A DNA stretch of 64,000 bases from an uncultured Eubacteriales bacterium (GCA_902492655.1 CABUMF010000007.1:1191-65190), one strand, 5' to 3'; positions 41,552 through 63,039 are shown, counted from the stretch's first letter. Numbers and translations are program-made. Notes: generated by a model from the letters alone, not told the origin.

Positions 41552-41884
41552 ATGTACACTCCCTATAATTCCTTATGTATATTATATTCGTTTGTGCGAA
41601 TTTTTGCAATACAATAAATGAAATTGTAACAAAGATTTTAAATAAATTCAAATTAAAGAAACGAATAATAAAGTATAAATCGACATGAACCTTTATACCA
41701 TATGAACTCTATTTAAGCCATCTGAACCCCATTACTTTCACAAGAAGCATCTAAAAACACGGAAAACCGCTTCGAATTATCTTCGAAACGGTTTGTTTAT
41801 TGTTTCACAAGTGCTGAAAAGCCTTATTTAAAGCCAAAGAACAATAACCCCAACTTTTTATCAAAGTTAGGGTTATAATTTGAG

Positions 41885-41973
41885 CGGAGAGAAAGGGATT
41901 CGAACCCTTGAACGGGTATTAGCCGTTACACGATTTCCAGTCGTGCGCCTTAGACCAGCTCAGCCATCTCTCC
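41885..41973 (-). tRNA. tRNA-Ser (anticodon GGA), class II with long variable arm
   Basis: Minus-strand GGAGAGATGGCTGAGCTGGTCTAAGGCGCACGACTGGAAATCGTGTAACGGCTAATACCCGTTCAAGGGTTCGAATCCCTTTCTCTCCG; cloverleaf foldable by eye; no encoded CCA. Confidence 0.8.
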
Positions 41974-62320: not shown

Positions 62321-62355
62321 AATTATTCATTATTCATTATTCATTATTCATTATT
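62321..62355. repeat. Five tandem copies of heptanucleotide (C)ATTATT
   Basis: aattattcattattcattattcattattcattatt read directly. Confidence 0.5.
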
Positions 62356-62366
62356 AATTACAAAAA

Positions 62367-62394
62367 ATCCTACCGCAAGGTAGGATTTTTGTTT
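62367..62394 (-). terminator. Terminator hairpin downstream of tRNA-Leu (bidirectional)
   Basis: aatcctacc-gcaa-ggtaggatt flanked by A/T runs on both sides. Confidence 0.5.
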
Positions 62395-62397
62395 TTC

Positions 62398-62725
62398 TGC
62401 CGCTGACCGGACTTGAACCGGTACGCCGTTGCCGGCGAGGGATTTTCTCACTACTCTATGTCACCATAGCCACGCAAAAATGCGTGTTGTAGTCCGGACT
62501 TGGTCTTTGCCATATCCTTTTTGGGACTTAGGCAGTCGGTGTAAGGTCTCTACACTCACCCCGCATGGGGTTAGCACGGCGTTCTGTTTGCGCCTTCGCC
62601 GTTTTAGCCGACTTCTGCACCGCAGATTTCTTTACGGGCACTCTCTGCGAAAAAACCGCAGACGCATGGATTTCATGCGTGCAAACATCAAAGTCCCTTG
62701 TGTCTGCCAATTCCACCACAGCGGC
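62398..62725 (-). tRNA. tRNA-Leu(UAA) gene interrupted by a 244-nt intron between U34 and A35; exons 62691..62725 (35 nt) and 62398..62446 (49 nt)
   Basis: Joined exons GCCGCUGUGGUGGAAUUGGCAGACACAAGGGACUU|AAAAUCCCUCGCCGGCAACGGCGUACCGGUUCAAGUCCGGUCAGCGGCA fold into class II cloverleaf nearly identical to E. coli tRNA-Leu(UAA). Confidence 0.8.
62447..62690 (-). ncRNA. Candidate group I (IC3-like) self-splicing intron, 244 nt, no ORF
   Basis: Inserted at the canonical U34/A35 site of tRNA-Leu(UAA); 5' exon ends in U, intron ends in G; internal hairpins; segments GUGUAGAGAC, CCUAAG, GCUAUGG resemble tRNA group I introns as recalled. Confidence 0.6.
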
Positions 62726-63039
62726 ATCTATTAAGCTTTATAAATTATGCGAAAACCGCAGAATACTGAAAAACCACCGTTTCACGCCTAATAATGATAC
62801 CACATTTAATAAAATTTGTCAATAGCTTTTCAAAAAAAAATAATCGGATCCGAAAATCCAATTATTAAAAAAATATTATAAAAAGGAGGGAAAATGAAAA
62901 AACTTATTACATTATTTATGATACCATGTTTTATAGAAAAAATCAAGTCTTAATTTTGTGGATAATTAACAAACCAAGGTATATATTTTTGTGCAAGTTG
63001 AACAAAAGAAGTCTTATTTTGCAATTTTGGCAAAAAAAA

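Follow-up and report, generated by a model that had tools for sequence, protein, structure and literature searches.

On the minus strand of the window, i.e., the whole 64,000-nt stretch of DNA from an uncultured Eubacteriales bacterium that was analyzed here, we found a split tRNA gene. We are highly confident that this is a stand-alone tRNA-Leu(UAA) gene from a gut bacterium resembling Ruminococcus, and that the 244 nt inserted between U34 and A35 are a group I intron belonging to the bacterial tRNA (IC3-like) lineage and would be removed by splicing. The covariation of helices P1 to P9, a covariance model (named R1) and a sequence-only profile together identify the insert as a group I intron of this lineage, and the two latter tools link it to introns recognized by the Rfam model RF00028. 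The group I, IC3-like assignment made in a first-pass annotation of the window is thus supported. In the fold of this intron, the usual P5 hairpin is replaced by a covarying pseudoknot.

The split tRNA-Leu(UAA) gene and its surroundings

The joined exons (62725..62691 and 62446..62398, minus strand; 35 + 49 nt) give a complete tRNA-Leu(UAA). Re-reading of the sequence returned exactly the coordinates, exon sequences and 244-nt spacing given in the first-pass annotation, as well as the U at the end of the 5' exon (62691) and the G at the end of the insert (62447). The 84-nt exon join was called tRNA-Leu(taa) by ARAGORN, with a cloverleaf, a long variable arm and the anticodon UAA. The intron-aware run of this program, which had been suggested as a check, was applied to the unspliced DNA and reported tRNA-Leu(taa) containing an intron of 244 nt, and the split between U34 and A35 is therefore supported in both ways. 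Default ARAGORN (no intron mode) and the Rfam tRNA model missed the split gene, and the sole tRNA reported by them in the window was a tRNA-Ser at 41884..41973.

The tRNA-Leu(UAA) gene stands alone and has its own promoter-like and terminator-like sites (Table 1). Its neighbors are housekeeping genes (ispE, spoIIR and a glutamate-racemase-like gene), and no phage genes flank the locus. No counterpart of ispE, spoIIR or the downstream 295-aa ORF was found beside the tRNA gene in any related locus, and murI matches were confined to unrelated loci, plus one weak match in the close relative L052 (31% identity). Synteny is uninformative on vertical inheritance here. The UUA codon is in use, accounting for 10 of the 126 Leu codons in five window genes, and a 99%-identical strain retains the intron. 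The tRNA gene is presumably essential.

Two further features of the locus were observed. The leader between the promoter and the tRNA 5' end (about 62 nt) contains a small hairpin, UGCGGUUUUCGCA, at 62748..62760 on the minus strand, which resembles the intron hairpin P1b (CUGCGGUUUUUUCGCAG). Just 3' of the tRNA terminator, a 7-nt tandem repeat, ATTATTC, is present in 5.6 copies (window 62322..62360). The window and the 99%-identical strain (L239) cease to align at this repeat, whose copy number is therefore probably strain-variable.

Table 1. Features of the split tRNA-Leu(UAA) gene, in minus-strand order (window positions; a caret marks the splice site)
Feature	Position	Strand	Remarks
Promoter-like site of the tRNA gene	62794..62822	-	-35 TTGACA, 17-nt spacer, extended -10 TGgTATCAT; 11/12 matches
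5' exon, 35 nt	62691..62725	-	Ends in U34 (62691)
Group I intron, 244 nt	62447..62690	-	First nt U 62690; terminal (omega) G 62447
Pseudoknot 5' strand UGUUUGC	62681..62687	-	Intron nt 4-10; 100% paired in 13 relatives
Two P1-loop hairpins	62645..62680	-	P1a 62680..62662, P1b 62661..62645; 9 pairs doubly changed
Internal guide sequence AGAGU	62640..62644	-	P1 with ACUU^U (62694..62690); G62643 wobbles with U34 (62691)
P2 hairpin CCGUAAA-GAAA-UCUGCGG	62620..62637	-	GAAA tetraloop 62630..62627; 7/7 pairs doubly changed
P3 5' strand AGUCGG	62608..62613	-	Pairs with CCGACU, 62539..62534
P4	62576..62602	-	ACGGCG 62602..62597 / CGCCGU 62581..62576; 99.8% paired (81-sequence alignment)
Pseudoknot 3' strand GCAAACA	62585..62591	-	In the P4-closed loop, where other introns carry the P5 hairpin
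P6	62554..62575	-	GC-UAA-CCCC-AUGC-GGGG-UGA-GU; shape as in Rfam consensus
P7 5' strand G(A)GAC	62546..62550	-	Bulged A62549; G62548 pairs with C62497
P8 hairpin	62509..62533	-	Carries the putative 11-nt tetraloop-receptor motif CCUAAG...UAUGG
P7 3' strand GUCC	62496..62499	-	Covariation model
P9 domain	62450..62493	-	Enclosing helix ACUAC/GUAGU, 62493..62489 with 62454..62450
P9 hairpin; P9a hairpin with GUGA loop	62485..62472; 62469..62456	-	Covariation
3' exon, 49 nt	62398..62446	-	Begins at A35; CCA unencoded
Terminator-like hairpin, then T run	62363..62390	-	Directly 3' of the tRNA; minus-strand reading ends TTTTTT

Fold, covariation and recognition of the intron

We drew up a P1-P9 model of the window copy manually, taking the Rfam structure line on cyanobacterial copies as a guide (Table 1). 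The P3-P7 pseudoknot, the P4-P6 stack and P8 follow in canonical order and covary, P5 being the one exception (replaced, see below). Inside P4 lie J4/5, the strand of the replacing pseudoknot and J5/4. The U.G wobble at the 5' splice site is present in all 13 Ruminococcus-type introns and in 75 of the 81 introns of an alignment spanning many phyla, both P7 G-C pairs are invariant in this larger set (81/81), and a terminal G closes the intron in all relatives. G62548-C62497 in P7 is predicted to be the guanosine-binding pair, a role that we assign from established knowledge of group I introns. The hairpin ACGCAUG-AAAUC-CAUGCGU, pointed out at first pass, is indeed present at 62680..62662 and covaries among the relatives. 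P2 of the window copy contains one A x C mismatch. From its sequence and established knowledge, we take CCUAAG...UAUGG in P8 to be the 11-nt tetraloop receptor and the presumed docking partner of the P2 GAAA loop, both motifs being conserved. No evident P10 pairing of the 3' exon with the guide sequence was seen. A receptor for L9 in the P5 hairpin, an IC3 trait, is absent from this intron, which has no local P5 and whose P9a loop is GUGA.

Three other assignments were considered and dropped. An initial P2, UCUGC-GGU-GCAGA, which also appears in the minimum-free-energy fold, gave way to CCGUAAA-GAAA-UCUGCGG because the latter covaries at 7/7 pairs. An extension of P1 by GGG/CCC was discarded since those C residues are part of P2. 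A circularly permuted core had been suggested by the position of GUGUAGAGAC before CCUAAG...UAUGG; according to the Rfam structure line and the covariation, the receptor sits in P8.

A MAFFT alignment of 13 Ruminococcus-type introns provided a structure test free of model-fitting bias. In this alignment, 96.8% of cells form standard pairs, and 31 of the 75 pairs are doubly changed, compared with 9.7 +/- 2.1 in shuffled alignments (0 of 500 shuffles reached the observed value). When the 3' partners were slid by 1-3 columns, pairing fell to 27-45%. In the 81-intron alignment spanning many phyla, pairing holds for 93.9% of cells, and double changes occur in 58 of 67 pairs; this alignment (A2) was fitted to the model structure, which biases its pair counts in favor of that structure. 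The covariance model R1, built from the MAFFT alignment, produced a single match in the window (62439..62698, 292 bits) and full-length matches in every other bacterial tRNA-Leu intron tested, cyanobacterial ones included (L009 and L107: 41.8 and 39.6 bits, E 9e-11 and 4e-10, full length). It also matched Rfam-recognized tRNA-Leu introns from cyanobacteria, acidobacteria and proteobacteria. A profile of the Ruminococcus type built on six sequences matched, by nhmmer, 45 further tRNA-Leu intron regions (E 1e-25 to 3e-3), including the Rfam-recognized L086, L111 and L046. Finally, the block GUGUAGAGAC, which had been linked to IC3 introns at first pass, is common to 65 other interrupted tRNA-Leu genes among the matches listed.

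The Rfam search proposed in the first-pass annotation had a different outcome: RF00028 (Intron_gpI) gave no match at its gathering score, and none even at E<=10 on the 551 bases around the gene. Weak matches to other Rfam families at E<=10 correspond to the terminator hairpin and the AT-rich repeat, and no other family fits. Close relatives of the Ruminococcus type had no RF00028 match at E<=1, and the same was true of L073. As a positive control, the same Rfam library was applied to other interrupted tRNA-Leu genes (RF00028 gathering threshold, 50 bits). RF00028 scored 74.9 and 73.5 bits on the two cyanobacterial copies L009 and L107, 55 bits on a Gemmataceae copy, 51 bits on a Sulfotelmatobacter copy, 41.5 and 40 bits (below gathering) on the acidobacterial L046 and L119, and 31.8 and 28 bits (E 2e-4 and 2e-3) on the Clostridia intermediates L057 and L089. 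Of the loci submitted at the gathering score, only four passed: L009 and L107 and, from outside the cyanobacteria, L086 and L111; L017, L004, L020, L112 and L054 gave no match. This gradient (75, 55, 51, 41, 32, 28 bits, none) indicates that the sensitivity of RF00028 fades gradually toward the Ruminococcus-type subfamily. The miss is attributable to the limited reach of the model in this subfamily and is no argument against the intron. Williams 2020 (bioRxiv 10.1101/2020.01.27.920355) describes the Rfam seed as containing no bacterial intron.

Among the genome matches listed (L004-L119; Acidobacteriota, Binatia, Proteobacteria and others), most non-cyanobacterial tRNA-Leu(UAA) introns were below the 50 bits of Rfam. 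ARAGORN often labels the interrupted tRNA-Leu genes as Ser, Phe or Arg because of a boundary shifted by 1-3 nt.

It is hardly credible that the insert is something other than a group I intron, be it a repeat or small mobile element, a ribozyme of another class or an intron spliced by proteins. Such an element would account for the missing RF00028 match and for the several open frames overlapping the insert. However, the full set of group I helices covaries, the P3/P7 pseudoknot included, R1 recovers group I introns that are certified by Rfam and occupy this tRNA site, and no other Rfam family offers a fit. As for the open frames, the claim made at first pass that the insert has no ORF was correct only in part: the window does contain mechanically called ORFs (63-101 aa) that overlap the intron, but among 12 close relatives no open frame is conserved.

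The cyanobacterial tRNA-Leu(UAA) intron (Nostoc/Anabaena PCC 7120; IC3) occupies the same site of the same host gene (CUU^AAAA, 34/35) and has the same core elements, namely GUGYAGAGAC (J6/7 and the P7 5' strand), P3', P8, P7' AGUCC, the U.G wobble and the terminal G. It differs in having a short simple P1 and a local P5, whereas the window intron has a two-hairpin P1 loop and a pseudoknot for P5; with RF00028, the cyanobacterial introns reach 74-75 bits and the window intron has no match. The P9a loop is GUGA or GUAA in Ruminococcus-type introns and GAAA in most non-Firmicute relatives. The Azoarcus tRNA-Ile(CAU) intron (IC3) is likewise a small bacterial tRNA intron containing the GUGUAGAGAC block, although its tRNA and insertion position are different. 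In the Azoarcus structure, the GAAA loop is on P2 and the receptor in P8, and the corresponding sequence motifs of the window intron are found in the same two helices. Azoarcus has a P5 with a receptor for L9 and a P1 extension formed with the guide sequence (PMC13168695); unlike in Azoarcus, the would-be P1-extension nucleotides of the window intron pair with the P5 position.

Based on this anatomy, splicing would proceed as follows. A precursor would be transcribed from the gene's own promoter, and the intron would fold into P1-P2, P3-P8, P4-P6 and P7-P9. Free guanosine would bind in the P7 pocket (G62548-C62497, next to the bulged A62549) and attack the bond after U34, which would be wobble-paired (U.G) with the guide-sequence nucleotide G62643. 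The same P7 pocket would then accept the terminal G (62447), and the 5' exon would attack the 3' splice site, yielding mature tRNA-Leu(UAA) with the anticodon loop CUUAAAA. Two contacts would hold the fold: docking of the P2 GAAA loop in the 11-nt receptor of P8, as in Azoarcus, and a subfamily-specific 7-bp pseudoknot between intron nt 4-10 and the P5-replacing strand, which would take over the stacking position of P5 on P4 and link the splice-site helix P1 to the J4/5 docking site.

Selection on every helix, the intact exons and expression signals, UUA use and retention in the 99%-identical strain speak indirectly for a functional intron. A decayed, splicing-dead relic in a tRNA pseudogene, with an intact tRNA-Leu(UAA) elsewhere doing the work, is very improbable. 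Compensatory changes in every helix across species indicate ongoing selection on the fold, the U.G wobble (75/81), the terminal G and the P7 pocket are conserved, and the exons fold into a perfect tRNA with intact promoter-like and terminator-like sites. A relic would explain why Rfam fails to recognize the intron and why P5 is missing and one P2 pair is mismatched, but a covarying pseudoknot takes the place of P5. The view comprises 64 kb of the genome, and an intron-less tRNA-Leu(UAA) could sit elsewhere.

A probable pseudoknot in the place of P5

Between the P4 strands of the window copy there are 15 nt, AAGGCGCAAACAGAA, and no P5 hairpin. These nucleotides include GCAAACA, the exact complement of UGUUUGC near the 5' end of the intron. 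The strand order (pseudoknot 5', P4 5', pseudoknot 3', P4 3') is that of an H-type pseudoknot. Pairing of this helix is complete (100%) throughout the 13 close relatives, and three of its pairs are doubly changed.

We then compared 73 parsed, non-redundant introns of bacterial, metagenomic and viral-contig origin. Of the 31 introns that have no local P5 stem, 28 form at least five Watson-Crick pairs to the P5 position, starting at intron nt 2-6, whereas such complementarity is present in 3 of the 42 introns with an ordinary 3-5 bp P5 hairpin (Fisher p 1.3e-13). Two of the three exceptions among the P5-less introns still pair through G.U, and in the third (L073), the pairing is made by a loop in the P1 extension (ACUAUAG/CUAUAGU). 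The distinct helix sequences observed in the same register number at least 12: UGUUUGC/GCAAACA, UGUUUGU/ACAAACA, UGUUCACA/UGUGAACA, UGUUAGC/GCUAACA, UCUUAGC/GCUAAGA, CCUAAC/GUUAGG, UGUGUUU/AAACACA, UGUGUUC/GAACACA, UCCUAUC/GAUAGGA, UCAACUA/UAGUUGA, CUUAGC/GCUAAG and UCUGG/CCAGA. In the pseudoknot-type copies, P1 is short (ACUU^U with AGAGU) and the usual P1 extension is absent.

The complementarity between nt 4-10 and the P5 position might instead be a chance or inherited feature, or an alternative, exclusive pairing (a folding trap, or a post-splicing conformation limiting circularization or reverse splicing) with no structural role as a P5 substitute. The members are related, so part of the shared sequence is inherited, and per-sequence shuffle tests of the pseudoknot are only moderately strong, with 7 to 400 of 5000 shuffles reaching the observed run. 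A post-splicing role is conceivable because Azoarcus re-uses its intron 5' end for circularization after splicing (PMC13168695). We nevertheless consider this explanation unlikely. The different helix sequences keep perfect pairing in one register, and the pairing and a local P5 hairpin almost never occur together. Together with the covariation in close relatives, these observations exclude chance; the role may be structural or regulatory.

In the structural reading, which we prefer, the pseudoknot could stack on P4 as P5 does, by analogy with solved group I structures. It is tentatively proposed, at a level of confidence well below that for the intron itself, that the subfamily may represent an undescribed group I core architecture. 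One pseudoknot (nt 4-10 with the P4-closed loop) would supplant both the P5 hairpin and the P1 extension, tethering P1 covalently to the J4/5 docking site, and this architecture would recur in tRNA-Leu(UAA) of Ruminococcus and of large gut/rumen phages, some apparently TAG-recoded, its would-be vectors. No description of a P5-replacing pseudoknot was found in the literature, the accessible parts of the texts of Williams 2020 and PMC13011429 included.

Relatives, phages and implications

Genomes were scanned, one per species, with GGCAGACNNNNNGGACTT N{229,259} AAAATCC, and at least 119 loci were obtained. The 119 matches listed include about 70 true split tRNA-Leu(UAA) genes, and among them the 34/35 site is occupied in Acidobacteriota, Binatia, Proteobacteria, Planctomycetota, Armatimonadota, Clostridia and two cyanobacteria; GUGYAGAGAC is common to 65 of the listed introns and AGUCCRGAC to 55. 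Six introns among the matches listed are 82-88% identical to the window intron. They come from Ruminococcus albus 8 (same type, 83% identity), two other Ruminococcus genomes and three Oscillospiraceae metagenome-assembled genomes. The introns of L089, L057 and L073 are 62-65% identical to it. A scan of metagenomes with the Firmicute-type core motif GTGTAGAGACNNTAYACC N{25,55} AGTCCRGAC also returned at least 119 loci, including at least 17 further unique tRNA-Leu(UAA) introns of 201-340 nt.

An intron at tRNA-Leu 34/35 outside cyanobacteria is already known. Williams 2020 mapped 5292 split bacterial tRNA genes with tFind and treats Leu 34/35 as the classical type; a 2026 survey (PMC13011429) reports 333 tRNA group I introns from 18 phyla in 4934 complete genomes. 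The window intron resembles the class catalogued there as 'Leu.3Ug' (Williams 2020; PMC13011429), which is characterized by tRNA-Leu 34/35, U-1, a terminal G and occurrence in many phyla. Subgroup IC3 tRNA introns are listed in a 2014 review of group I introns in bacteria, which mentions no tRNA-Leu example from a Firmicute. Nothing relevant on Ruminococcus or Firmicutes tRNA-Leu introns was found in the literature covered, the per-phylum tables of the surveys lying outside this coverage. Considering the occurrence of 34/35 introns in many phyla, according to both surveys and scans, and in Ruminococcus albus 8 and Oscillospiraceae, the first-pass remark that such an intron is unusual in a Clostridia-like genome was overstated.

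The intron core (GTGTAGAGAC..TAYACC...AGTCCRGAC) was also seen in other positions. In metagenome loci, it splits tRNA-Tyr(GUA) at 35/36 (CUGU^AAA), often right after tRNA-Met (L130, L141, L148 and about 23 others), and tRNA-Asn(GUU) at 35/36 (L143, L158, L162 and L205). Position 35/36 is described in PMC13011429 as occupied mainly by IA introns of Patescibacteria. In the metagenome locus L128 (minus strand), the core has no tRNA-like flanks; the surroundings, repeated AAC/GGC-rich codon-like text, look protein-coding, and the intron may have inserted into a coding sequence.

Six metagenome relatives carry an HNH endonuclease ORF of about 150 aa in the P1 loop. These ORFs match Pfam HNH and HNH_3, as well as phrog_10822 at E 9e-38. 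HNH homing endonucleases are also reported for some of the bacterial tRNA group I introns catalogued in Williams 2020 and PMC13011429. The HNH ORFs of L171, L194, L217, L228 and L188 contain 1-3 in-frame stops each, all eight of which are TAG (no TGA or TAA), several at positions where homologues have Q (e.g., ENL[Q/TAG]LLCPNCH). In L217, the neighboring PIN-PhoH gene is split too. Judged by this pattern, these ORFs look like those of amber-to-glutamine recoded phage genomes rather than decayed genes.

In IMG/VR, 83 viral contigs, many with lengths of 100-230 kb, were found to contain the core motif, and at least 56 of the 83 have verified tRNA-Leu(UAA) exons. A BLAST search of the whole gene against annotated phage genomes gave no match. 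With the unassigned metagenome contigs L139 and L144 counted in the Ruminococcus-type group, the best R1 scores outside this group are viral (L310 and L317, 187 bits; L287, 177 bits), and these three copies have the P1-loop layout and the pseudoknot of the window intron. In two viral pseudoknot-type copies, the endonuclease gene is located in P6 instead of the P1 loop. The IMG/VR contig L251 (10.3 kb) contains a cluster of 20 tRNA genes with four intron copies by R1, and several different tRNAs are thus split by this intron family on one phage. L073 (GenBank CAAGJD010000133.1, binned as Acholeplasmatales) and L291 (IMG/VR UViG_3300045988_139151) are both 123,552 bp and 100% identical over the 3323 nt covered by both loci, and on the L073 contig about 10 tRNA genes lie clustered, one of them being the split tRNA-Leu. 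This 'bacterial' record is probably a phage genome.

The subfamily is thus common to Ruminococcus/Oscillospiraceae chromosomes and large gut/rumen phages, with an HNH homing endonuclease in some copies. Horizontal spread, as raised in the first-pass annotation, is plausible in view of the phage and HNH-bearing copies, and phages and homing endonucleases are its likely vehicles; nothing points to a cyanobacterial source.

Because default tRNA finders and Rfam are blind to the gene, Ruminococcus-type genomes and many phage genomes would appear to be without tRNA-Leu(UAA). R1 or an equivalent covariance model would close this annotation gap. The subfamily connects bacterial chromosomes and large phages via a tRNA gene, which makes phage intron transfer testable. 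A naturally occurring, widely conserved group I ribozyme that would build the P5 position from its own 5' end offers a compact test case for re-engineering P1 docking and the P4-P6 domain, and the pseudoknot may also alter the fate of the intron after splicing.
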